Shown: positions 1-53,802 of the stretch, one piece after another
Layout of the letters: each line of letters opens with the position of its first letter
Numbering within the stretch: the stretch's first letter is position 1
Assembly (NCBI GenBank): GCA_934446675.1
Contig: CAKSEL010000010.1
Location: forward strand, 19,861 to 83,860
Length of the DNA stretch: 64,000 nucleotides
From: an uncultured Eubacteriales bacterium
Lineage (GTDB): Bacteria > Bacillota > Clostridia > Oscillospirales > CAG-382
Direction of reading: 5' to 3'
The notes under the pieces: generated by a model
What the model was told of the DNA's origin: nothing
The model's input: only the letters and a program-made list of their open reading frames with translations
Databases searched by the model: none
Translations under genes and position numbers: made by a program

Positions 1-660
1 ATTCTCCAACTTTTCGACGGCGAAAAAGTTGCACTCTACTAAAGAGCGTAAACAAAAGCCGTTCGCGGCTCAGACGCCGCCGCGAAAGCGTGGCTACGGG
101 AGGATTTCACTCTAAAGAGTGTAAACGCCTACCGCAACTAACTACCCCTCCGAAATTTCAAAAACTCTCGTTTTGCACTTGTCCACATTGCTGTGTTGCG
201 AAATCGCCGCGCGACAGGCGCGCGGATATGGGGTTCTGTACGAAGTCAAACCATTTTGGAAAAAGTGTTATTTTTTATATTCTCCGACAGTCAACAGGAC
301 TCGCTTTTCTGCTCAGCTCGCTTACGCGAGATGACTTTTACAAATGTTAGTTTTTTGTTTCACGGGCGCGGAGTGAAAAATTCGGTTCTGTTTCGCCGGT
401 GCAAAGTTAAATACCGCATAAATTTCGGTTTCTGCGAAACAATTTCACTCACCAAAGTTCCCCATAGCACACAGTTTCCATAGTTTACTCACGCACCTGT
501 TTACATCTGAGTCAGCCGCCTGCCTTTTGGTGGCTGACGGTACAAGCTGGCGGCAGAGAGTATCCCGTAGCCTTTTCCTTATTTAAGGGCTTACTTGTTT
601 TTCTTTGCAGCTTTCTTTTTAAAAAGAAAGCGCGTATTCTTTTTCGGCGTAGTTGTATCT
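1..660 (-). repeat. Mosaic intergenic repeat, copy 1 (minus orientation, cut by window edge)
   Basis: The reverse complement aligns module-for-module with 4682-5348. Modules: A palindrome 610-631, hairpin B allele iii 511-538, hairpin C 317-330, hairpin D 207-225, hairpin E 62-86, F-variant hairpin 8-30. Its 5' end lies just after the stop (679-681) of the minus-strand M23 gene. Confidence 0.9.
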
Positions 661-3187: not shown

Positions 3188-4681
<1,494 letters not shown>

Positions 4682-4699
4682 GGGTACGCAAGAATACGC

Positions 4700-4721
4700 G
4701 CTTTCTTTTTAAAAAGAAAGC
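4700..4721 (+). other. Module A: 22-bp perfect palindrome GCTTTCTTTTTAAAAAGAAAGC
   Basis: Identical palindrome at 610-631, 17386-17407, 20539-20560, 22735-22756, 27601-27622, 31915-31936, 43055-43076, 46036-46057 and 52732-52753. It is always followed by TGCAAAGAAAAC. Confidence 0.95.
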
Positions 4722-4789
4722 TGCAAAGAAAACGGTAGCCCTTAATTTAGAAAAAGGCTATGGGATACTCCCTGCCGCCAGCTTGTTCC

Positions 4790-4818
4790 GTCCGCAGTCA
4801 AACAGCAGGACTGCGGAC
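4790..4818 (+). other. Module B hairpin (allele i): GTCCGCAGTC-N9-GACTGCGGAC
   Basis: Perfect 10-bp inverted repeat. The same position in other copies carries allele ii or iii (see findings). Confidence 0.9.
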
Positions 4819-4934
4819 TAAGATTATAAATAATGTGCCGAAGTAAACTATGGAAATTCAGTACAAAGGGTTGCTTTGGAAAGTGAAATTACTTTGCACC
4901 ACCCAAACAACAAACTAACATTTGTAAAAGTCAT

Positions 4935-4948
4935 CTCGCGTAAGCGAG
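4935..4948 (+). other. Module C hairpin: CTCGC-GTAA-GCGAG (GNRA-type loop)
   Basis: 5-bp stem with a GTAA loop, flanked by conserved AAAGTCAT and CTGGGCAGAAAA. Confidence 0.85.
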
Positions 4949-5040
4949 CTGGGCAGAAAAGTGAGTCCTGTTGACTGCGTGATTATATAGAAAATAACAC
5001 TTGCGCCGAATTGGGTTTAACTTCGTACAGAACCCCATAT

Positions 5041-5059
5041 CCGCGCGCCTGTCGCGCGG
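5041..5059 (+). other. Module D hairpin (allele a): CCGCGCG-CCTGT-CGCGCGG
   Basis: 7-bp all-GC stem between conserved CCCCAT and CGATTT. Confidence 0.85.
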
Positions 5060-5179
5060 CGATTTCGCGGCACAGTTTCAGGGACATTGCGAAACGAGGA
5101 TTTTTGAGCTTTCGGGGGCGTATTTGGTTTCGGTGCGCGTTTACACTCTTTAGAGTGAAATCCTCCACGTAGCCGCGCT

Positions 5180-5204
5180 TTCGCTGCGGCGTTTGAGCGG
5201 CGAA
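5180..5204 (+). other. Module E hairpin: TTCGCTGC-GGCGTTTGA-GCGGCGAA, followed by a T-rich tract
   Basis: 8-bp stem with one U.G pair. It is followed by AAAATCTTTTGTTT, which makes it the most terminator-like hairpin inside the element. Confidence 0.8.
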
Positions 5205-5231
5205 AATCTTTTGTTTACACTCTTTAGAGCG

Positions 5232-5256
5232 CGACTTTTTCGATTCCGAAAAGTCG
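5232..5256 (+). other. Module F hairpin: CGACTTTTTCG-ATTC-CGAAAAGTCG (start of a Z unit)
   Basis: The core CTTTTCGATTCCGAAAAG recurs about 19 times in the window (by eye), always followed by GAATAGAGTTGCACATGGAAGTGAAT..CCGTTTCCGCCC or a variant. Confidence 0.9.
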
Positions 5257-5348
5257 GTGTATAGACTTGCACATAGCAGTGAATTATCTCTTTCCGCCCA
5301 AAACAGGCAACAATCACTCCCCCAATGTAGAAGAAAGGAGCAGAACAC

Positions 5349-12439: not shown

Positions 12440-12995
12440 TAAAAGTAGAATTTGATCCAAGTTTCTTGCCGATAGGCAAGCTGGGCAGAAAAACGTGTCC
12501 TGTTGACTGCGTAATAACTCGAAAAAATTACTTTTTTCACCTAAAATTAAGTTTACGCAGACCGCAGCGTGACATGGCGTAAGAGATAGAGCTGAGATAA
12601 ACAAATTTTACTTAGAAACCAACCCCATCGAGCAGTGCGGAGCATCTGCGAGCGAAAATTTAAAACTTCGGAGGTGCGGGAAAGTTTTACCGACGATAGT
12701 TTGATGTGTGGAAAGGAAGCCGCGCTTTCGCTGCGGCGTTTGAGCGGCGAAAATCTTTTGCGACTTTTTCGATTCCGAAAAGTCGGAAGAATAGAGTTGC
12801 ACATGGAAGTGAATTATTCTTTTTCGCCCAAAACAAGCGTCAGTTAGATAAACACAAAGTATCTTTTCTACTTTTCGATTCCGAAAAGTCGGAGAATAGA
12901 GCTGCACATGGCAGTGAATTAAAATTTCTCGCCCAAAATAAGCAACAGCCAGCCAAGCACAAAACATCTTTCCGCCCAACCTCCCTGCTCTCTTT
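12440..12995 (+). repeat. Mosaic repeat copy 3b: 5'-truncated copy (from module C onward)
   Basis: Hairpin C variant CTTGCCGATAGGCAAG at 12465-12480, then CTGGGCAGAAAA..CCTGTTGACTG, module V, D allele b, S3 spacer, E hairpin and two Z units. Confidence 0.9.
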
Positions 12996-13021: not shown

Positions 13022-13050
13022 TTGACGAAAAAACTAAAAAATAGTATAAT
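13022..13050 (+). promoter_or_regulatory. Sigma-A-type promoter candidate for the lipid-kinase/Fur/DHHW genes
   Basis: TTGACG (13022-13027), a 17-nt spacer, then TATAAT (13045-13050). A second TATAAT lies at 13052-13057, and the sequence is unique, just 3' of repeat copy 3b. Confidence 0.65.
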
Positions 13051-13083: not shown

Positions 13084-13989
13084 GTGTCAAAGAAACTGCT
13101 GCTTGTGATGAACCCGTGCGCAGGTATAAAAAAGTCAAATAAATACTTGACCGATATACTGAGCGTGTTCGCCGTAAATGATTATGAATGTACCGTTCAG
13201 CTCACCACACTTAAAATAAGAGCCGCAGATATTGTCGAAAAATACGGAAAAAATAAAGACCTTATCGTGTGTATAGGCGGCGACGGCACGTTTAACGAAA
13301 CCGTATCCGGTATTCTTAAAGCAAATCTCCATGCAAAACTCGGATATATCCCTTCCGGCAGTACAAACGATTTTGCATCAAGCCTCGGTCTGAGTTTAAA
13401 TCCGGTAAGGGCGGCTGAAGATATAGCATACGGAGACGCGGTAAACTTCGACGTCGGGCTTTTCAATTCAAGACCGTTTACTTATGTCGCGTCCTTCGGC
13501 GTGTTCACAAAGGCGTCTTATGCGGCGCCGCGCGACCTTAAAAATATGCTCGGACACCTTGCATATATACTTGAAGGCATGAAAGAACTCGGCGATATAA
13601 AACCCTTTGACGTAACCGTTAAAACCGCAGATAAAACGTATAGCGGAAAATATCTTTTCGGCGCAGTCTGTAATTCAACGAGAGTCGGCGGCGGCGTAAT
13701 TAAACTGCCTAAAGACCTTGTGGATATGAACGACGGACTTTTTGAAACCGTGCTTGTAAAAAATCCCGAAACTCCGGCGGATTTCATGCAGCTGCTTATA
13801 GATCTCCAGACCTTTAACTATAAAGGCAATATGTTTGAATTTTTCACGTCGGATAAAGCTGAAATAACAGCGGATCCGAATATGAACTGGACTCTCGACG
13901 GCGAATATGAAAAAGGCTGTCAGAATATCACGGTCGAAAATCTGCACAGCGCAATATCCCTTATGATAAAAAGAAAGTATGAAGAATAA
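13084..13989 (+). CDS. Diacylglycerol-kinase-family lipid kinase (YegS/DagK type)
   Basis: VCIGGDGTFNETVSG motif. GTG start with SD GGGAGG 7 nt upstream. Confidence 0.92.
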   Translation: MSKKLLLVMNPCAGIKKSNKYLTDILSVFAVNDYECTVQLTTLKIRAADIVEKYGKNKDLIVCIGGDGTFNETVSGILKANLHAKLGYIPSGSTNDFASSLGLSLNPVRAAEDIAYGDAVNFDVGLFNSRPFTYVASFGVFTKASYAAPRDLKNMLGHLAYILEGMKELGDIKPFDVTVKTADKTYSGKYLFGAVCNSTRVGGGVIKLPKDLVDMNDGLFETVLVKNPETPADFMQLLIDLQTFNYKGNMFEFFTSDKAEITADPNMNWTLDGEYEKGCQNITVENLHSAISLMIKRKYEE

Positions 13990-15818: not shown

Positions 15819-15855
15819 ATGAATTGTGGGTTATTTTGGATTGAGTTATGCTTGG

Positions 15856-15990
15856 TTTGGGTGAAAAAAGATAATTCACTGCCACTTGCAAGTCTATTCT
15901 CCAACTTTTCGATTCCGAAAAGCGGAGATACAAAGCTGCACTTTGAAGAATATTTCCCATTTCCGCCCAAACAAGCAACAATCAACCAAA
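15856..15990. repeat. Mosaic repeat copy 4: two Z units head-to-head around one F hairpin
   Basis: TTTGGGTGAAAAAAGATAATTCACTGCCACTTGCAAGTCTATTCTCCAA, then CTTTTCGATTCCGAAAAG (15905-15922), then CGGAGATACAAAGCTGCACTTTGAAGAATATTTCCCATTTCCGCCCAAA. The left arm is a reversed Z and the right arm a forward Z. Confidence 0.85.
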
Positions 15991-15996
15991 ATTACC

Positions 15997-16156
15997 TTTT
16001 CCACAAATTAACATCGACTTTCCCACAAAATCCACAAAGAGTTATACACATCAAATCCACAGGAAATCAACAGGTTACGCATAAGGTTTTCCATAGGAAA
16101 AAAATTCTGGAATCAAGGCAGAATAAGCACTTCGGGAGTTGTCCACAGTTTCCACA
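15997..16156 (+). promoter_or_regulatory. Cluster of seven DnaA-box-like 9-mers, all in one orientation
   Basis: TTTTCCACA 15997, TTTCCCACA 16019, AAATCCACA 16028, TTATACACA 16042, AAATCCACA 16053, TTGTCCACA 16139, GTTTCCACA 16148. Each has 1-2 mismatches to TTATCCACA. Confidence 0.7.
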
Positions 16157-16180
16157 CCCTCTACTACTACTACTGCTTCC

Positions 16181-16212
16181 TATAAACAATATATATTATA
16201 TTATTTTTGTAT
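16181..16212. other. AT-rich tract (possible unwinding element) preceded by a (CTA)4 microrepeat
   Basis: TATAAACAATATATATTATATTATTTTTGTAT contains 2 G/C in 32 nt. CTACTACTACTAC lies at 16161-16173. Confidence 0.4.
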
Positions 16213-16245
16213 CGGATATAAAGAAAAAAGAAAGGATAGATAAAC

Positions 16246-17358
16246 ATGATTTTTACCGTAGATAAGGACGAGTTCGAGAAAGCCATAATACCGGTAAGTA
16301 TAGTGGCGCAGAATAAGTCGTCGGAGGCAAGCCTTTCCGGCGTTTATATGGAGGCAAAAGATAATAAACTCGTGCTGTATTGCTATGATATAGAGCGCGG
16401 TATAAGAACCGAGATAGACGCCGACGTAAAAAAAGAAGGCTGTATAATAGCCGATTATCAGATAGTGCCTATTATACATTCGCTTAACGGCGGAGAAGTC
16501 TATATCGAAGTAGATGATAATTATATAATTAATATAAAGAATGATGAATCCGAACTTCAGATAATGGGCAGAGACGGCTCGTCGTATCCGAAAATTCCCG
16601 AAGTCAGAGGATTTTCAAGCTTTACAATAAGCCGCAGACAGCTTAAAAATGTTATATCAAAGACTATGTTCGCAGTGTCTGATGATGAGTCTAAGCCTAT
16701 ACTTAAAGGCTCGCTGTTTGAAATTTCAGACGGTAAACTCACAGTCAGCGCAATAGACGGATTCAGATTTACCGTAAGAACCGAAAAAAGTACCGTTGAT
16801 AAGTCCGATCTTAATGTAAGCTTTATTCTGCCCGGTAAGGCTGAACAGAACCTGCTCAGAATTATTGATGACAGCGATGATAATATAAGCTGTGAACTTG
16901 CAAATAAACATATAATTTTTGTTATGGATAACCTTTATATCCTTATCCGTTTGCTTGAGGGTGATTTTCCGTCTTATCAGAAGTTTATTCCGCAGTATGA
17001 TGTTAAGGCTGTCGTTGATAAACAGGAACTTATTGCAAGCCTTGAAAGAGTTAATATTATTAACGCTAAAAAGAAAACCTCCGCTAAACTTACTTTCGTT
17101 AATGATCAGCTTAAAATTTTCTGTAAAACCGATCTCGGTCAGGTTTCCGATGTTATCTCTATCTATATGGAGGGCGATCCTATCGAGGCTAATTTTAATC
17201 AGTCTTACCTCCTTGACGCTCTCCGCGCCTGCGATGATGAAAAAGTCGTCCTTAGAGTAGCCGGTCAGGGCAGAGGTCTCGTTATCGTTGCCCGTGAAGA
17301 AGATGAAAAAGATGATTCCTCTTATCTCCAGCTCGTTATGCCTGTCAGAGCAAGATAG
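16246..17358 (+). CDS. dnaN: DNA polymerase III beta sliding clamp
   Basis: 370 aa, three-domain clamp length, with the motif LLEGDFPSYQKFIP. Lies downstream of the DnaA boxes. Confidence 0.93.
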   Translation: MIFTVDKDEFEKAIIPVSIVAQNKSSEASLSGVYMEAKDNKLVLYCYDIERGIRTEIDADVKKEGCIIADYQIVPIIHSLNGGEVYIEVDDNYIINIKNDESELQIMGRDGSSYPKIPEVRGFSSFTISRRQLKNVISKTMFAVSDDESKPILKGSLFEISDGKLTVSAIDGFRFTVRTEKSTVDKSDLNVSFILPGKAEQNLLRIIDDSDDNISCELANKHIIFVMDNLYILIRLLEGDFPSYQKFIPQYDVKAVVDKQELIASLERVNIINAKKKTSAKLTFVNDQLKIFCKTDLGQVSDVISIYMEGDPIEANFNQSYLLDALRACDDEKVVLRVAGQGRGLVIVAREEDEKDDSSYLQLVMPVRAR

Positions 17359-18268
17359 AAACATTTTCGCCGAAGAAGAATACGCGCTTTCTTTTTAAAA
17401 AGAAAGCTGCAAAGAAAACGGGGAACGCGCTTTTCTGAAGAAAAGCTGAGCGCTCTAAAGAGTGTAAACAAAAGACTTTCGTAGCCCTTAAATAAAAATA
17501 AAGCTGTTGGCAACTCTGTGCCGCCAGCTTGTACCGTTCGCAGTCGAACAGCAGGACTGCGAACTCAAATCTAAGCAGGTGCCGAAGTAAACTATGGAAG
17601 TTGTGTACTATTGGTAACTTTGAAAAGTGAAACCCCTTTGCAACAGCGAAATAAAGTAAAAATTTCACTTCGCACCCGCGAAACAAAAACTAACATTTGT
17701 AAAAGTCATCTTGCCGTAGGCAAGCTGGGCAGAAAAATTTGTCCTGTTGACTGTTTGAATATATTAAGAGTAACATTCTTGCCAAAATAGTTTAACTTCG
17801 TACAGAACCCCATATCCGCGCGTCAGTCGCGCGGCGATTTTGCCGTAAGTTACACGGACGTACCGTAGTAGCAAGGCGGTCACGCTTGTGAGAATAATAG
17901 AGGTGAGAAAAGCTGTGTTTCGGGCAAAATCCTTCCGTCGGGGGATTGTCAAGGGGCGAGTAGTCCCTTGAACGGCTTTTCGACCACTTTTCGCCGCCGA
18001 AAAGTGCATATTTAAAGTTGCACTTTGAAGAATATAACCCGTTTCAGCTCAAAATAATCTGAAGTCAGCCACACGCAAGTGTAGTTCGCTTTCGCGGCGG
18101 CGTTTGAGCCGCGAAAATCTTTTGTCATTTATCCTCGCAGGGGACTTTTTCGATTCCGAAAAGTGAGAGAATAGAGTTGCAATTAGAAGTGAGTTATCCT
18201 TTTTAACCCAAAATAAGTAACACTCAGCCAAACAAAAAGTATTAAAAAATTTTGAAAAAAGAATATAG
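17359..18268 (+). repeat. Mosaic intergenic repeat, copy 5 (910 bp)
   Basis: A palindrome 17386-17407, a 60-bp insertion at 17421-17480, hairpin B allele ii 17536-17564, hairpin C allele ii 17710-17724, D allele a variant, S2-like spacer and two Z units. Confidence 0.93.
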
Positions 18269-20506: not shown

Positions 20507-21285
20507 GGACGCGAAGGGGAACGCGCTGAAGGTTACGCGCTTTCTTTTTAAAAAGAAAGCTGCAAAGAAAACGGTAGCCCCTAATTTAGAAAAGAATTGT
20601 TGGATACTCTCTGCCTCCGGCTTGTACCGTCAGCCACCAAAAGTCAGGCGGCTGACTTAAATGTGAACAATGGTGCCGAAGCAAGCTATGGAAATTCAGT
20701 ACAAATGGTTGCTTTGAAAAGTGAAATAATTACGCACCGACGAAACACAAAACTAATACTTGTAAAAGTCATCTTGCCGTAGGCAAGATGGGCAGAAAAA
20801 TGAGTCCTGTTGACTGTTGGAGAATATAAAAAATAACACTTTTTCCGAAATGGTTTGAGTTTGTACAAACCCCATTATCGAGCAGTGCGGAGCATCTGCG
20901 AGCGATTTTGCCGTAGGTTGTGTGGACGCACCGTAGTAACAAGTGGTCACTTTGGTAAAAGCGGTTGAGGGGTAGAAATCCGAGTTCAAGGCAAAATCCC
21001 CCACGTAGCCACGCTTTCGCGGCGGCGTTTGAGCCGCGAAAATCTTTTGTAACTTTTTCGATTCCGAAAAGTTAGAGAATAGAGTTGCACATGGCAGTGA
21101 ATAACCCGTTTCCGCTCAAACAGGCAAAAATCAGCCAAACAAAAAACATCTTTCAGCTTTTCTACTTAGAAAAGCGTCAGTATAAAGTCGCACTTTGAAA
21201 AAAGTAACCCGTTTCCGCCCAAAAAAAAGTAAGTAAAATTTAAATATTTACCCAAAATTTAAGAAGAAGAAAAGGAGAATTTTCC
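20507..21285 (+). repeat. Mosaic intergenic repeat, copy 6 (779 bp)
   Basis: A palindrome 20539-20560, hairpin B allele iii 20629-20656, C allele ii, D allele b, S2, E hairpin 21016-21040, F hairpins at 21051-21073 and 21156-21175. Confidence 0.93.
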
Positions 21286-22695: not shown

Positions 22696-23565
22696 AGAAT
22701 ACGAAGGGGTACGAAGGGGTACGCAAGAATACGCGCTTTCTTTTTAAAAAGAAAGCTGCAAAGAAAACGGTAGCCCTTAAATAAGAAAAAAGCTGTGGGA
22801 TATTCTCTGCCGCCAGCTTGTTCCGTCCGCAGTCGAACAGCAGGACTGCGGACTAAGATGTAAACAGGTGCATGAGTAAACTATGGAAACTGTGTGCTAA
22901 GGGTAGCTTTGGAAAGTGAAATTGCTCCGCACTATCTAAACATAAAACTAAAATTCAGCAAAGTCATCTCGCGTAAGCGAGCTGGGCAGAAAAATAAGTC
23001 CTGTTGACTGTGTAATAACAGTAAAAATTAACATTTGCGCACCCAAAATAAAGTTTACGCAGACCGCGGCGTGACATGACGTAAAACTTGGCATTATGTC
23101 AACCAATCCATGTTCAGATACCAACCCCATCGAGCAGTGCGGAGCATCTGCGAGCGAAGATTGCAAACTTCGGAGGCGCGGAAAAAGCTTTACCGACGAT
23201 AGTTAGATGTGTGGAGAAGAAGCCGCGCTTTCGCTGCGGCGTTTGAGCGGCGAAAATCTTTTGTCATTTATCCTCGCAGGGGACTTTTTCGATTCCGAAA
23301 AGTGAGAGAATAGAGTTGCAGGTGGAAGTGGATAATCCGTTTTCGCCAAAAATAAGTGAAAATCAGCCACACGCAAGTGTAGTTCGCTTTCGCTGCGGCG
23401 TTTGAGCGGCGAAAATCTTTTGTTTACACTCTTTAGAGCGCCCGTCTTTTCGATTCCGAAAAGCGGAGATATAGGGTTGCACATGGAAGTGAATAATCAA
23501 TGTGGCACAAAAATATTCATTCCTCCTAAACTAATCAAAAATCACCCCAAAAAGGAATAAAAAAT
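22696..23565 (+). repeat. Mosaic intergenic repeat, copy 7 (870 bp)
   Basis: Four tandem TACG decamers (22697-22736), A palindrome 22735-22756, hairpin B allele i 22825-22853, C, V, D allele b, S3 and two E+F+Z units. Confidence 0.93.
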
Positions 23566-27569: not shown

Positions 27570-28282
27570 TTTTTGTCCCGAAGGGGTACGAGGAATACGC
27601 GCTTTCTTTTTAAAAAGAAAGCTGCAAAGAAAACGGTAGCCCTTAAATAAGAATAGAATTGTGGGATACTCCCTGCCGCCAGCTTGTTCCGTCCGCAGTC
27701 AAACAGCAGGACTGCGGACTCAGATATAAATAAGGTGCCGAAGTAAACTATGGAAATTGTGTACGGACGATAACTTTGAAAAGTGAAATTGCTCCGCACC
27801 AACAAAACAAAAAACTAACATCTGTAAAAGTCATCTCGCGCAAGCGAGCTGGGCAGAAAAACGAGTCCTGTTGACTGTGAAATAGCTCAAAAAAATTACT
27901 TTTTTGCACCCAAAATAAAGTTTACGCAGACCGCAGCGTGACATGGCATAAAAATCCGGAATTATGTCAACTAAACCGTGTTTAGATACCAACCCCATCG
28001 AGCAGTGCGGAGCATCTGCGAGCGATGATAGAGAATTTCGGAGGTGCGCGGAGGCTTTACCGACAATAGTTTGATGTGTGGAAACATAGCCACGCTTTCG
28101 CGGCGGCGTTTGAGCCGCGAAAATCTTTTGTTTACACTCTTTAGAGCGCGACTTTTTCGATTCCGAAAAGTCGGAGAATAAAGCTGCAAGTGGCAGTGAA
28201 TAATCCGTTTCCTCCTAAACTTAAGAAACAATCAGCCCAAATAATCAGTACCCTGAAAAAAGTAGAGAAAGGAAGATACCCG
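27570..28282 (+). repeat. Mosaic intergenic repeat, copy 8 (713 bp)
   Basis: A palindrome 27601-27622, hairpin B allele i 27691-27719, hairpin C with GCAA loop 27835-27848, V, D allele b, S3 and one E+F+Z unit. It ends GAAAGGAAGATACCCG just before TTG 28283. Confidence 0.93.
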
Positions 28283-31895: not shown

Positions 31896-32730
31896 GGAGT
31901 ACGCAGGAGAACGCGCTTTCTTTTTAAAAAGAAAGCTGCAAAGAAAACAATAGCCCCTAATTTAGAAAAGAATTGTGGGATACTCTCTGCCGCCAGCTTG
32001 TACCGTCCGCAGTCAAACAGCAGGACTGCGGACTAAGATGTAAACAGGTGCGTGAGTAAACTATGGAAATTGTGTACTAATGGCAGCTTTGGAAAGTGAA
32101 ATAATTACGCACAAACGAAATAAATCCCAAATTTCACTTTGCACCCACGAAACAAAAAACTAAAATTCAGCAAAGTCATCTCGCGTAAGCGAGCTGGGCA
32201 GAAAAACGAGCCCTGTTGACTGCAAAATAACTTGAGAAAATTACTTTTTTGCACTCGAAATAAAGTTTACGCAGACCGTAACGTGACATGGCATAAAAGT
32301 TTGGCATTATGTCAACTAAACCGTGTTTAGATACCAACCCCATCGAGCAGTGCGGAGCATCTGCGAGCGATTTCGCCGTAGGTTACGTGGACGCACCGTA
32401 GTAACAAGTGGTCGTTTTGGTAAGGGTTTTGGAGGGGAAGAATGTGCGTTTAGGGCGAAATCCTCCACGTAGCCACGCTTTCGCGGCGGCGTTTGAGCCG
32501 CGAAAATCTTTTGTTACCTTTTCGATTCCGAAAAGTAAGCATATAAAGTCGCACTTTGAAGAAAGTAATCCGTTTCCGCCCAAACCAAGCAAAAATAAGC
32601 CAAACGTAAAACATCTTTTCACTTTTCGATTCCGAAAAGAGGAGATATAAGGTTGCAATTGGAAGTGAATGTCCCGCTTCAGCCCAAAATAATCAAAAAA
32701 AGAAAATAGAAGAAGAAAAGAGGAGTCCCC
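31896..32730 (+). repeat. Mosaic intergenic repeat, copy 9 (835 bp)
   Basis: A palindrome 31915-31936, hairpin B allele i 32005-32033, C, V, D allele b, S2, E and two Z units. It ends AAGAGGAGTCCCC just before GTG 32731. Confidence 0.93.
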
Positions 32731-37241: not shown

Positions 37242-37640
37242 AGGGAGTTCCTCTTTTCTTCTTCTTTTCTTTGATTTATGTTGGGCTTGTTTTCTTTTGT
37301 TTTGGGCGGAAATTGGTTAGTCACTGCCATGTGCAAGCGTATACCTCCGCTTTTCGGAATCGAAAAGACGGGCAAAAGATTTTCGCGGCTCAAACGCCGC
37401 CGCGAAAGCGTGGCTTTATTTTCCACACAAAATTGTATCGTCGGAAAAACATCTTCGCGCCCCCGAAGTCTGCAATCTTCGCTCGCAGACGCTCCGCGCT
37501 GCTCGATATGGGGTTCTGTACAAAGCTAAACTATTTCGGGGAAAGTGTTATTTTTTATATACTCATGCAGTCAACAGGACACACTTTTACGACCAGCTCG
37601 CTGTCGCGAGATGACTACGGCTGAATTTTACTTTTGTGTT
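37242..37640 (-). repeat. Mosaic repeat copy 10a: 5'-truncated copy in minus orientation, 3' end at the polA start
   Basis: On the reverse strand: hairpin C (GACA loop) 37597-37610, D allele b, S3, E hairpin, F hairpin 37350-37367, Z core, then SD and the polA GTG. Confidence 0.9.
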
Positions 37641-37680
37641 TGGTAAACTAAACTTGCAAGTTCGCTCTAAAACGTAATAT

Positions 37681-38156
37681 ACCGCACCAAATTGCACTCA
37701 CAAAGACGTGACACGGCAGAAAAACAGTATTATGTCAACCAAGTCATTGCTAAGAAACCAACCCCATCGAGCAGTGCGAAGCATCTGCGAGCGATTTTGC
37801 CGTAGGTTATGTGGACGCACCGTAGTAACAAGTGGTCACTTTGGAAAAAGCGTTTGAGGGGTAAAAAGTCATGTTTAGGGCAAAATCCTCCACGTAGCCA
37901 CGCTTTCGCGGCGGCGTTTGAGCCGCGAACGGCTTTTGTTTACGCTCTTTAGAGTGCAACTTTTTCGCCGTCGAAAAGTTGGAGAATAGAGCTGCACATG
38001 GAAGTGGATTATCTTTTTAGCCCCAAATAAGCAACACTCAGCCAACCGCAGAACATCTTTCAGCTTTTCGATTCCGAAAAGCGTCGGTATAAAGTTGCAC
38101 TTTGAAGAAAATTCCCCGTTTCCGCCCAAATCGACCTCAAAATATCTTCAATCTTC
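37681..38156 (+). repeat. Mosaic repeat copy 10b: 5'-truncated copy in plus orientation
   Basis: Starts in module V, then D allele b, S2, E, F-variant hairpin 37957-37981, Z, and a second F+Z. It ends at the stop codon (38157-38159) of the minus-strand HD gene. Confidence 0.9.
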
Positions 38157-38744
38157 TCAGTTCAGCGAATCCAGCGACATTTCAAACGCACCTGCAAAGT
38201 GCTCCATAAAATACTTAAGCTCCGGACATGACTGCATGTGCTCGTCAAGCGCGCGTTTGGTTGAGTTGAGAGCGTCGCGGAACTCGGAGTTTCCGTTTTT
38301 GTACTCGTCAACGCATTTGAGATACGCGCATAGCTTGTCCGCAGCCTTTACAATGCGCTTTAAGTCGGCGCTTTGCTCAAATTCAAGAATTTCTGCATAG
38401 TTTTCTTTCAGATCTTCCGGAAGTTTTGACAGCGCGTTCTCCACCGCGTTCTTTTCAAGCGATTTGTAACTTTCGCGTATGGTGTCGTTAAAATATTTGA
38501 CCGGCGTCGGCAGATCTCCCGTGAATATCTCGCTCATGTCGTGGTACAGGGCGCAGAGCGCGGTCTTTCCGCAGTCGTAATTCTTGCCGAATACAGTGTT
38601 GCCTATCTCGGCAAGCGCGTGCGCAAGCATGGAACACTGTGCGCTGTGCTCAAGTAAGTTTTCGCTCGTGAGATTTCTCATAAGTCCCCAGCGGTTTATG
38701 TATTTCATTCTGAATGCAAGCGCAAAAAATGAGTAGTTTTCCAT
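38157..38744 (-). CDS. HD-domain 5'-deoxynucleotidase (YfbR-like)
   Basis: EHSAQCSMLAHAL and LYHDMSEIFTGDLPTPVK HD motifs. 195 aa. Confidence 0.88.
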   Translation of the reverse strand: MENYSFFALAFRMKYINRWGLMRNLTSENLLEHSAQCSMLAHALAEIGNTVFGKNYDCGKTALCALYHDMSEIFTGDLPTPVKYFNDTIRESYKSLEKNAVENALSKLPEDLKENYAEILEFEQSADLKRIVKAADKLCAYLKCVDEYKNGNSEFRDALNSTKRALDEHMQSCPELKYFMEHFAGAFEMSLDSLN

Positions 38745-43022: not shown

Positions 43023-43399
43023 GGGTACGAAGGAGTACGCGCCGAAGAATACGCGCTTTCTTTTTAAAAAGAAAGCTGCAAAGAAAACAATAGCCCTTAA
43101 TTTAGAAAAAGGCTACGGGATACTCTGTGCCGCCAGCTTGTGCCGTCAGCCACCAAAAGTCGGGCGGCTGACTCAAATCTAAGCAGGTGCGTGAGTAAAC
43201 TATGGAAATTATGTGCTGACGGTGACTTTGGAAAGTGAAACTCTTTTGTCATTTATCCTCGCAGAGGACTTTTTCGATTCCGAAAAGTGAGTGTAGAAAG
43301 CTGCAAGCAGAAGTGAATTTCCCGTTTCCGCCAAAAATTAAGATATATTTCTCAAATTTTTAAGATACATTTTTCCCAAAAAAGAAAGGAAGAGTCCCG
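43023..43399 (+). repeat. Mosaic intergenic repeat, copy 11 (377 bp, internal deletion)
   Basis: A palindrome 43055-43076, hairpin B allele iii 43145-43172, and the 5' half of P3, joined directly to the linker TCATTTATCCTCGCAGAGG plus one F+Z unit. It ends GAAAGGAAGAGTCCCG just before ATG 43400. Confidence 0.92.
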
Positions 43400-46017: not shown

Positions 46018-46820
46018 GAGTACGCAAGAATACGCGCTTTCTTTTTAAAAAGAAAGCTGCAAAGAAAACAGTAGCCCTTAATTTAGAAAAGAATTGCGGA
46101 ATACTCTCTGCCGCCAGCTTGTACCGTTCGCAGTCGAACAGCAGGACTGCGAACTCAGATGTGAGCAGGTGCTGAAGTAAACTATGGAAATTTAGTACAA
46201 AGGGCAACTTTGGAAAGTGATATTACTTCGCACCACCCAAACATAAAACTAAAATTCAGCAAAGTCATCTCGCGTAAGCGAGTTGGGCGGAAAAACGAGT
46301 CCTGTTGACTGCATAATAACGCATAAGAATTGCATATTTGAGCCTTAAATATAGTTTACGCAGACCGCAACGTGACATGGCATAAAAGTTGAACTGTGTT
46401 AACCAATTTGAGCGTAGACACCAGCCCCATCGAGCAGTGCGGAGCATCTGCGAGCGATTTTGCCGTAGGTTACGTGGACGCACCGTAGTAACAAGTGGTC
46501 ACTTTAGAAAAATCGTTTGAGGGGTAGAAAGTCATGTTCAGGGCAAAATCCTCCACGTAGCCACGCTTTCGCTGCGGCGTTTGAGCGGCGAAAATCTTTT
46601 GCGACTTTTTCGATTCCGAAAAGTCGGTGAATAGACTTGCAAGTGACAGTGGATAATCCTTTTCCGCCTAAAATAATCAAAATTTGATTAAACATAAAAC
46701 ATCTTTCAGCTTTTCTCCGTAGAAAAGCGTCAGTATAGGGTTGCACATGGAAGTGGATTATCCGTTTCCGCCCAAACCAAGAAACAATCAGCCAAGAAAA
46801 AAGAAAGGAAGTCTCTCACC
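46018..46820 (+). repeat. Mosaic intergenic repeat, copy 12 (803 bp)
   Basis: A palindrome 46036-46057, hairpin B allele ii 46126-46154, C, V, D allele b, S2, E (U.G allele) and two Z units. It ends GAAAGGAAGTCTCTCACC just before GTG 46821. Confidence 0.93.
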
Positions 46821-50421: not shown

Positions 50422-51292
50422 AGTACGCAGGAATACGCGCTTTATAGGGGTACGCGCTTTTCTGAAGAAAAGCTGAGCGCTCTAAAGAGTGTAAACAAAA
50501 GACTTTCGTAGCCCTTAAATAAGAAAAGAATTGTGGGATACTCCCTGCCGCCAGCTTGTACCGTTCGCAGTCAAACAGCAGGACTGCGAACTCAGATGTA
50601 AACAGGTGCGTGAGTAAACTATGGAAATTCAGTACAAAGGGTAGCTTTTGAAAGTGAAATTACTCCGCACCTACGAAACAACAAACTAACATTTGTAAAA
50701 GTCATCTTGCCGTAGGCAAGCTGGTCGGAAAAGTTAGTCCTGTTGACTGTGAAATAACAGAAAAAGTTAACACTTGCGCACCTCAAATAAAGTTTACGCA
50801 GACCGCAACGTGACATGGCGTAAAACTTGGCATTATGTCAACCAACTTGTGTGTAGATGCCAGCCCCATCCGCGCGCCTGTCGCGCGGCGATTTTGCCGT
50901 AAGCTACACGGACGTACCATAGTAGCAAGGCGGTCGCATTTGTAAGGATAATAAAGGTGAAAAAAGCCATGTTCAGGGCAAAATCCTCCACGTAGCCACG
51001 CTTTCGCGGCGGCGTTTGAGCCGCGAAAATCTTTTGCCTTTTATCCTCGCAGGGGACTTTTTCGATTCCGAAAAGAGGGGGAATAGGGTTGCACATGGCA
51101 GTGAATTATCTTTTCTCGCCAAAATAAGCAACAGCTAGCCAAACACCAAACATCTTTCAGCTTTTCTCCGTAGAAAAGCGTCAGTACAAAGTTGCACTTT
51201 GAAGAATATTTCCCGTTTCCGCCCAAATAGGCAACAATCAACCAATCAAAAACTAAAAAATTATATAGAATCTCAGAAAGAAGATGTAAAAT
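50422..51292 (+). repeat. Mosaic intergenic repeat, copy 13 (871 bp)
   Basis: TACG decamers. The A palindrome is replaced by the insertion variant (hairpin 50456-50473, inverted 27-mer 50475-50501). Then hairpin B allele ii 50563-50591, C allele ii, V, D allele a, S2, E and two Z units. Confidence 0.93.
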
Positions 51293-52702: not shown

Positions 52703-53802
52703 GGAATAGATAGGGATTACGAGGGATACGCGCTTTCTTTTTAAAAAGAAAGCTGCAAAGAAAACGGTAGTCCTTAATTTAGAAAAGAATTGTGGGATAC
52801 TCTCTGCCGCCAGCTTGTACCGTCCGCAGTCGAACAGCAGGACTGCGGACTAAGATAAAAACAGGTGCCAAAGCAAGCTATGGAAATTGTGTGCTGAAGG
52901 TGGCTTTGGTGAGTGAAACCGTTTCGCAACAATGAAATAAAGTAAAAATTTCACTTTGCGCCGACGAAACAGAACCGAATTTTCGCTCCGCACCGACGGA
53001 AACAATAAACTAAAATTCAGCAAAGTCATCTCGCGTAAGCGAGCTGGGTAGAAAAATGAGTCCTGTTGACTGCGAAATAACTTAAAAAAATTACTTTTTC
53101 GCACCTAAAATAAAGTTTACGCAGACCGCAGCGTGACATGGTACAAGAACTCGGCATTATGTCGACCAATTTGTGTTTAGAAACCAGCCCCATCCGCGCG
53201 CCTGTCGCGCGGCGATTTCGCGGCACAGTTTCAGGGACAGTGCGAAATGTGAGTTTTTGAAATTTCGGAGGCGTAAATGGTTTTGGTGCGCGTTTACACT
53301 CTTTAGAGTGAAATCCTCCACGTAGCCACGCTTTCGCGGCGGCGATTGAGCCGCGAACGGCTTTTGTTTACGCTCTTTAGAGTGCAACTTTTTCGCCGTC
53401 GAAAAGTTGGAGAATAGAGTTTCAAGTGGAAGTGAGTAATCCGTTCCCGCCAAAAACAGGTGAAAATCAGCCATACGCAAGTTTAGTTCGCTTTCGCGGC
53501 GGCGTTTGAGCCGCGAAAATCTTTTGTCATTTATCCTCGCAGGGGACTTTTTCGATTCCGAAAAGTGAGGAGAATAGACTTGCAAGTGGAAGTGAATTTC
53601 CCGTTTCCACCCAAAATAAGCAATACTCAGCCAAACAAAAAGTATCTTTTCGCTTTTCGATTCCGAAAAGTCGGTGAATAGAGTTGCACATGGAAGTGGA
53701 TTATCATTTTCCGCCCCAAAATAAGCAACACTCAGCCAAACCCGCAAACCTGTCCTGTGCAAAGAGAAAAAAGATATTAAAAGTTAGAAAGGAAGATCCC
53801 CG
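52703..53802 (+). repeat. Mosaic intergenic repeat, copy 14 (1100 bp, longest)
   Basis: A palindrome 52732-52753, hairpin B allele i 52822-52850, extended P3, C, V, D allele a, S1, then three Z units (F hairpins 53385-53409, 53546-53566, 53653-53670) with two E hairpins. It ends GAAAGGAAGATCCCCG just before GTG 53803. Confidence 0.93.

Follow-up and report, generated by a model that had tools for sequence, protein, structure and literature searches.

A conserved hairpin with a sense-strand bias in a mosaic extragenic repeat restricted to one Clostridia species

Hairpin E, a 25-nt inverted repeat first noted at positions 5180 to 5204 of a 64,000-nucleotide stretch of DNA (the whole stretch analyzed here, referred to as the window), is real, conserved, and biased toward the sense strand, and it forms one module of a mosaic extragenic repeat that is restricted to a single species. 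Its fold, conservation, strand bias, cassette context, and genomic distribution could be established from copies in the window, in a metagenome-assembled genome (MAG), and in gut metagenomes. The composite element of which E is part fills 13 inter-operon spacers of the window (0.4 to 1.1 kb each) and totals about 10 kb by its coordinates, or roughly 16% of the window. It is a repeat of the REP/BOX/SPRITE type, for which we infer a function as follows: E may be a non-canonical polar transcription stop, or a 3′-end hairpin, that insulates the gene on the far side of the trailing F units (the F-side gene), a reading to which we assign a probability of roughly 45%.

Copies and alleles of hairpin E

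The focal copy of E consists of the arm TTCGCTGC, the loop GGCGTTTGA, and the arm GCGGCGAA, with a possible ninth pair between T5179 and A5205. The window was searched with the pattern TTCGCKGCGGCGTTTGAGCSGCGAA, allowing up to 2 mismatches and using shuffled sequences as a control, and 15 copies were found, compared with 0.00 expected from the shuffles. Five of these carry a T..G allele (5180, 12727, 23230, 23389, and 46568) and ten a G..C allele; eight of the ten are exact (18091, 21016, 28097, 32480, 37382 on the minus strand, 37905, 51003, and 53493), and the other two (62 on the minus strand and 53333) have loop variants. The preliminary description had noted that the two arms differ together, and this was borne out, since neither of the mixed alleles (T..C or G..G) occurs among the 15 window copies. 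The primary sequence of the stem and loop is almost invariant, including 7 of the 9 loop bases in copies found without a loop constraint. The tail that follows the stem reads AATCTTTTG in 12 window copies and CGGCTTTTG in 3. The copies are as follows.

62..86, minus strand: E copy, G..C allele, loop GGCGTCTGA, cggc tail
5180..5204, plus strand: hairpin E, focal copy, T..G (U.G) allele
5205..5213, plus strand: tail of the focal copy, AATCTTTTG, in which CTTTTG is nearly invariant among copies
12727..12751, plus strand: E copy, T..G allele
18091..18115, plus strand: E copy, G..C allele
21016..21040, plus strand: E copy, G..C allele
23230..23254, plus strand: E copy, T..G allele, first of two upstream of dxr
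23389..23413, plus strand: E copy, T..G allele, second in the dxr-upstream spacer, 159 nt past the first
28097..28121, plus strand: E copy, G..C allele
32480..32504, plus strand: E copy, G..C allele
37382..37406, minus strand: E copy, G..C allele, co-oriented with polA, left member of a head-to-head pair
37905..37929, plus strand: E copy, G..C allele, cggc tail, right member of the head-to-head pair
46568..46592, plus strand: E copy, T..G allele, upstream gccAc (A,T,G haplotype)
51003..51027, plus strand: E copy, G..C allele
53333..53357, plus strand: E copy, G..C allele, loop GGCGATTGA, cggc tail
53493..53517, plus strand: E copy, G..C allele

The copy at 37905 is opposite in orientation to both of its neighbors, polA and an HD-domain gene, which are both on the minus strand. 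At 53333, the 3′ arm of E also makes a mini-hairpin (GAGCCG-CGAA-CGGCTT), which is followed by TTGTTT.

Modules of the composite element

In tandem spacers, the modules of the element follow the order A-h3-h4-T-variable-E-(Z/Y)-F, with one to three F units. Around the focal copy, they are laid out as listed here.

4682..4966, plus strand: 5′ part of the element, starting directly past the IMPDH stop codon
4700-4721, plus strand: hairpin A, GCTTTCTTTTTAAAAAGAAAGC, soon after the upstream stop codon
4790-4818, plus strand: hairpin h3, with three covarying pairs
4932-4951, plus strand: hairpin h4
4967..4977, plus strand: T box, CCTGTTGACTG, left border of the exchangeable T-E-F cassette
5139..5174, plus strand: upstream Z copy (GTTTACACTCTTTAGAGTG) and then X2 (AAATCCTCCACGTAGCC), directly 5′ of E
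5213..5232, plus strand: downstream Z module, GTTTACACTCTTTAGAGCGC; optional, with TCATTTATCCTCGCAGGGG or nothing in its place elsewhere
5232..5320, plus strand: F unit, consisting of the hairpin CGACTTTTTCGATTCCGAAAAGTCG and about 65 nt

Within the T box, TGTTGACT is invariant in 14 of 14 aligned copies, and the variable segment from the T box to E holds alternative hairpins. In copies of the X2 type, the tail of E is predicted to pair with an upstream GYRAAA. Elsewhere, F units number one to three and repeat in tandem about every 104 nt. The F hairpin (5232-5256 and about 25 others) has a fixed core, TTTTCGATTCCGAAAAG, and an outer stem that covaries (CGAC/GTCG, CAAC/GTTG, TAAC/GTTA, TTAC/GTAA, CCAC/GTGG, and CGCC/GGCG).

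Several irregular arrangements were also observed. A short copy of the element at 43023-43399 has A and h3 joined directly to Y and F, without h4, the T box, or E; the two parts meet at a GAAA..CTTTTG microhomology that they share. Within the 5′ part of the copy at 17377 is an inverted insertion (17408-17470) that resembles the tail, Z, and the F hairpin. Short tandem repeats like GAAGGGGTAC stand between stop codons and module A at 22696-22734, 27570-27600, and 43023-43054. The Z variant CGCTCTTTAGAGTG (5213-5232, 37939-37957, and other Z modules) contains GCTCTTTA, which we take to be the core of the Escherichia coli rrn/lambda boxA antitermination motif; the match may be due to chance.

Pairing, strand, and linked sites

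The fold of E was assessed in a pooled set of 95 context-unique copies from the window, the MAG UMGS1387, and gut metagenomes; all covariation evidence comes from paralogues and strains of one species. In 36 distinct rows, 96.3% of the E stem cells are paired, and the T..G/G..C pair is the only one that varies on both sides. Over the 95 copies, this pair is G-C in 45, U.G in 35 (two of which carry other stem changes), G.U in 3, G.G in 4, and A.C in 1. The other stem variants are U13.G33 (2 copies), G17.U29 (3 copies), and four singleton mismatches of the A.C type. Altogether, the rarer variants are sense-strand wobbles in 8 copies versus the 4 singletons of the A.C type; counted as independent events, this becomes about 6 to 9 wobbles versus 4, an excess that is not statistically decisive.

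Consensus folding also favors the gene-sense strand. The alifold energy for E alone is −12.8 on the sense strand versus −3.5 on the antisense strand; with flanks included, the corresponding values are −18.7 versus −11.9 in the X1 context and −14.4 versus −12.4 in the X2 context. In the helices that flank E, purines stand opposite U and pyrimidines opposite G, and one-sided changes retain pairing. The 5′ part of the element has no sense-strand folding advantage by alifold, and the strand test was uninformative for the F hairpin (1 wobble versus 1 A.C). The preliminary description had assigned the folded strand from the U.G/G-C difference. The direction that it proposed is upheld by the alifold energies and the wobbles, and E probably folds in gene-sense RNA, but the single U.G/G-C switch is by itself weak evidence on strand, owing to a linked third site and to an alternative, all-G-C fold of the T/G haplotype.

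The third variable site, which was overlooked in the preliminary description, is the R of a gccRc motif 10 nt upstream of the E stem. It is linked to the two stem sites with r2 values of 0.68 to 0.88, as tightly as the stem sites are linked to each other, whereas sites of the loop and tail that lie among or next to these three have r2 values of at most 0.11, with all four allele combinations present. The haplotypes of the three sites (third site, stem 5′, stem 3′) are nested: A,G,C; A,G,G; A,T,G; and G,T,G. The G.G intermediate was found in 4 of the 95 context-unique copies, all outside the window. The U.G/G-C difference is thus that of one nested lineage with two sub-families, joined by a classical compensatory path from G-C through G.G to U.G, followed by the third change nearby.

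A copy with the G,T,G haplotype offers the 3′ arm of E another potential partner.

5172..5201, plus strand: alternative fold E′ of the focal copy, G,T,G haplotype only

In E′, GCCGC (5172-5176) pairs with the GCGGC of the E 3′ arm, and an inner CGC-UGCG-GCG forms with UGCG as the tetraloop. For the focal copy, E′ is predicted at −16.2 kcal/mol versus −13.3 kcal/mol for E, and the probability of E at 5180 is 0.03 with 150 nt of context on either side. E′, which is open to the T/G haplotype, consists of G-C pairs throughout and as a fold is silent on strand. As a fold of the whole family, E′ was considered and rejected: 82.7% of its cells pair, there is no covariation, and it is confined to a single haplotype. 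In X1 copies, the third site is part of a different small hairpin, where its partner is a U and both of its alleles are therefore tolerated.

Gene junctions, paired cassettes, and cassette exchange

Junction types were assigned with heuristic gene calls (open reading frames plus purine excess) that were spot-checked by Pfam and public gene calls. On this basis, 30 junctions are tandem and co-oriented with E, 3 complete and 14 partial ones are convergent, 5 are tandem and anti-oriented, and 1 is divergent. This distribution fits a polar transcription stop or insulator.

Inverted pairs of cassettes are head-to-head in 11 of 11 cases and tail-to-tail in none; the members lie 500 to 830 nt apart, typically between convergent genes.

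37382-37929 of the window, and loci L011, L020, L049, L051, L056, L060, L064, L074, L085, and L093: head-to-head pairs

At L074, for example, a deacetylase gene on the plus strand is followed by F-E-T, T-E-F, and then asnA on the minus strand. In such pairs, transcripts coming from the far gene read each E in its sense orientation, about 200 nt ahead of the gene that they would otherwise enter. The center of the window pair is a palindrome, AACTTGCAAGTT. For the polA spacer (37242-38156) that holds this pair, a divergent promoter region with E in 5′ leaders was considered and rejected; the HD-domain gene (38157-38744) is on the minus strand in public calls, which makes the spacer a tandem junction with a head-to-head pair.

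Elements also interrupt essential operons. In a relative (L039), only 14 nt lie between the gyrA-like gene and dxr, whereas in the window they are separated by two elements and a GH28 gene. At L074, one element is flanked by pgk and tpi, a pair that is usually co-transcribed. The spacer downstream of IMPDH further distinguishes close strains: between the window and UMGS1387, both of its ends are about 95% identical, and the central ~300 nt hold a different cassette. The swapped segment (4979-5258 in the window versus 1594-1891 in L013) extends from just past the T box to the F hairpin and includes E, and the cassette in L013 has a different E allele, loop, tail, and F hairpin. By this comparison, the T-E-F cassette has evidently been exchanged as a unit between strains of ~95% identity.

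Hairpin E and transcription termination

In the preliminary description, E was proposed to be the real transcription stop or an attenuator within the element. The junction distribution suits a polar stop, but E fails the canonical criteria for loop, U run, and distance, and it is not a textbook terminator. Like an intrinsic terminator, it has a GC-rich stem and a conserved U run on the same strand, and it stands between transcription units. The stem (8 to 9 bp, with six G-C pairs and −13 to −15.5 kcal/mol) is within the range of about 5 to 14 bp for a GC-rich terminator stem. The loop, GGCGNNTGA, has 9 nt, in contrast to the 3 to 8 nt of a short terminator loop, and a terminator scan with that loop limit never reports E. 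The tail, A(A)AUCUUUUG, places AAA(A)UC between the stem and the four-U run, which begins 4 to 6 nt past the stem rather than 0 to 2 nt. In addition, the stem is preceded by UUU and followed by AAA, which reverses the A-tract/U-tract arrangement typical of terminators. The tail score of E is 1.1 to 1.9. The same scoring, which follows d'Aubenton-Carafa and TransTermHP, gives 3.6 for a neighboring mini-hairpin that the 3′ arm of E itself forms in the cggc-tail variant and 7.2 for an ideal tract. The distance from the upstream stop codon to E ranges from 484 to 1,462 nt with a median of 601 nt, as measured with the heuristic gene calls, and a position about 0.5 to 0.8 kb past the stop codon also differs from that of an intrinsic terminator. 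E is moreover doubled in two spacers (23230/23389 and 53333/53493). The small hairpins behind E each run into the U run of the F hairpin 5′ arm on the same strand, and the E-F junction looks like a cluster of potential weak stops. Terminator-like sites overall are not enriched in this genome.

The proposal that the F/Z units behind E belong to the leader of the next gene was contradicted where it could be checked. The best promoter match in 20 kb is of the sigma-70 type (TTGACG-17-TATAAT at 13022-13050, 11 of 12 positions) and sits between the last F unit and the dagK-like gene that starts at 13084; as this promoter follows the F units, they are not the leader of that gene. Furthermore, 22 of 71 copies have the 3′ end of a gene on the opposite strand directly next to their F side. 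Promoters within the F units or the T box were also considered and rejected, as neither holds a conserved hexamer pair with proper spacing.

Possible functions of the T-E-F cassette

The polar stop or insulator that we favor could work as follows. The T-E-F cassette, which consists of the T box CCTGTTGACTG, a variable structured segment, E, and one to three F units, makes up the 3′ half of the species-restricted mosaic spacer element. E would fold in RNA of the strand that reads TTCGC...GCGAA, mostly the sense strand of the flanking genes, and together with the hairpin/U-run modules behind it would end or cap transcripts that come from the T side, ahead of the F-side gene. We infer both the transcription of E and its role, either in terminating transcripts or in protecting the 3′ ends of RNA. 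The promoter at 13022-13050 is in line with such a stop, as its position after the F units puts E upstream of the promoter of that gene. An efficient stop would need a downstream promoter, because the genes that E separates are neighbors in a relative or are usually transcribed together, and none is evident downstream of E in several copies.

Those same gene pairs are what would be expected if E lay in a read-through untranslated region and acted as a sense-RNA module without termination, as a barrier to exonucleases, an RNase processing site, or a site of protein or RNA binding. The weak U tract and the sense-strand fold agree with this, and the 7 invariant bases of the 9-nt loop suggest that E is recognized by its sequence, which a plain terminator stem would not require. 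REP, ERIC, Correia, and BOX repeats have been reported to act in this way (PMC3049150). By itself, however, such a module leaves unexplained why divergent junctions are avoided and why convergent pairs are only head-to-head, and the canonical promoter at 13022-13050 follows the F units; we consider this account unlikely. We judge it just as doubtful that E acts at the DNA level or has no function, being the palindrome of a selfish repeat (REP/RAYT-like) or the site of a dimeric protein, with alleles that merely reflect haplotype linkage. The three variable sites do form a perfect nested genealogy in which the site outside the stem is equally linked, and the near invariance of stem and loop, the GTAG that shortly precedes E in X2 and X3 copies, the absence of the element from relatives at 48 to 69% protein identity, the exchange of cassettes between strains, and the origin-proximal location of about one-third of the copies in one assembly all point the same way. 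A site in double-stranded DNA, however, predicts neither the bias of the rare variants toward sense wobbles nor the better fold of the sense strand, even if a hairpin in single-stranded DNA of that strand would also predict a sense bias. At polA, moreover, orientation tracks genes and not replication, and Pfam detected no RAYT or other transposase among 20 window proteins and 7 L074 proteins.

A small transcription unit of its own, in which TTGACT would serve as the −35 element and E as the terminator of a small RNA of about 170 to 340 nt, would make sense of the invariant T box, of E lying 169 to 343 nt downstream of it with alternative hairpins in between, and of head-to-head pairs that resemble divergent units. 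E is also the best combination of a hairpin and a U run on its strand. Nevertheless, there is no convincing −10 element at 16 to 18 nt past TTGACT (the best candidate scores 9 of 12, in one copy only), such a unit would fire antisense into convergent genes, Rfam returns no match, and the copy at 37905, a member of the window's own pair, is without a T box. We regard this explanation as very improbable. Only slightly less improbable, in our opinion, is a broader proposal in which T-E-F would be an autonomous, recombinationally mobile unit, either a portable polar insulator or a multi-copy small RNA gene with E as its terminator; a unit of this kind would account jointly for spread within the species, exchange of ~300 nt between loci, splitting of operons, and concentration near the origin.

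If E does work as a stop or insulator, the transcription-unit boundaries of housekeeping genes (gyrA-like/dxr, pgk/tpi, polA, secA, and prfA) would have been rewired by one exchangeable cassette. This would represent natural, portable polar insulation in a Firmicute and offer a ready-made engineering part for gut Clostridia. Without such a function, E would belong to another species-specific family of selfish extragenic repeats. In either case, the cassettes are useful as a strain marker because they differ between strains of ~95% identity, and the element explains assembly breaks at the spacers of this species as well as spurious open reading frames from gene callers.

Relation to known extragenic repeats

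E shares the logic of SPRITE/BOX and REP/BIME repeats but not their sequence, size, polarity, or pairing pattern. Similarly to the pneumococcal SPRITE and BOX repeats, it is part of an interspersed Firmicute repeat that would fold into stem-loops if transcribed. SPRITE is a terminator-like stem-loop repeat that is enriched at gene 3′ ends and convergent junctions and has an 18-bp duplex with a long U-rich tract (PMC3049150). By contrast, the stem of E has 8 to 9 bp and its loop 9 nt, and the U run is short and displaced. BOX has a modular build in which the internal units are repeated in tandem a variable number of times (PMC3049150). Ordered modules are likewise found here, with F units that vary in tandem number and E plus F duplicated at 23230/23389 and 53333/53493, but the composite, at 0.4 to 1.1 kb, is far longer than BOX, strongly polar, and arranged in head-to-head pairs. 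No sequence similarity of E to SPRITE or to the boxA, boxB, and boxC modules of BOX is apparent, and the Rfam search gave no match.

REPs are located in the 3′ flanks of genes, and E, at 25 nt and with one divergent junction, is also a short GC-rich extragenic palindrome in such flanks. REPs have been reported to bind proteins and to aid transcription termination (PMC2817692). The likeness to REP/BIME extends to imperfect GC-rich extragenic palindromes of about 25 to 35 nt in mosaic composites. In contrast to REP/BIME of Proteobacteria, which number in the hundreds, E is found in a Clostridia species with about 25 to 40 copies per genome, and its copies are mostly solitary and co-oriented with genes rather than regularly spaced in alternating orientation. 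GTAG lies 7 nt (X2) or 3 nt (X3) upstream of GCTTTCGC and is absent in the X1 context (~40% of copies); it is therefore not at the REP position in all contexts. The Correia repeats of Neisseria and the enterobacterial ERIC repeats are co-transcribed with genes, and their hairpins alter RNA processing, stability, and the expression of neighbors (PMC3049150). They are 100 to 160 bp long with terminal inverted repeats, whereas the element described here is a polar, multi-module cassette in which inverted repeats arise only when two cassettes pair head-to-head.

Occurrence and genomic setting

The family is confined to a narrow phylogenetic range. Among GTDB genomes, scanned at one per species, UMGS1387 (a MAG of an uncultured member of the Clostridiales from the human gut) is the only one with E; eight further GTDB loci are chance matches in unrelated, mostly GC-rich genomes. 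Genes of UMGS1387 are about 95% identical to those of the window, which makes it the same species or nearly so. The assembly of UMGS1387 has 24 E matches and one metagenome assembly has 26, and a metagenome scan with both stem arms unconstrained yielded 55 loci. The entire window has no match in Rfam 15, either at gathering thresholds or at an E value of ≤1, and a tRNA/tmRNA search found none. The element has no match in phage and plasmid collections, nor does the E pattern in viral contigs. Relatives at 48 to 69% protein identity have short spacers with none of the modules, and a sister lineage at 83% identity is known from one 2.7-kb contig with 72 nt of spacer. In the relative L039 (69% PolA identity), the region upstream of polA (3463-3969) contains tandem intergenic repeats that are unrelated to the element described here and that also include CTTTT-loop-AAAAG hairpins. 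Spacers filled with repeats may be a trait of a wider clade.

The window is a bacterial chromosome segment that carries IMPDH, gyrA/parC-like, dxr, polA, secA, prfA, and thrC genes. An oriC-like region (15997-16215) lies directly upstream of dnaN (16246-17358) and holds eight DnaA-box-like 9-mers that differ from TTATCCACA at no more than 2 positions; an AT-rich stretch comes after them. A 148-amino-acid open reading frame that public assemblies annotate at 15819-16265 overlaps this region and is probably spurious. In the single-sample metagenome assembly ERZ835980, which supplied 22 of the loci L041 to L093, 9 of 26 E matches are in loci orthologous to the 64-kb origin-proximal window, and these counts suggest local enrichment of the family near oriC. 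Finally, the exact parS consensus (TGTTTCACGTGAAACA) occurs at 662-677 and 2809-2824, consistent with an origin-proximal position of the window.
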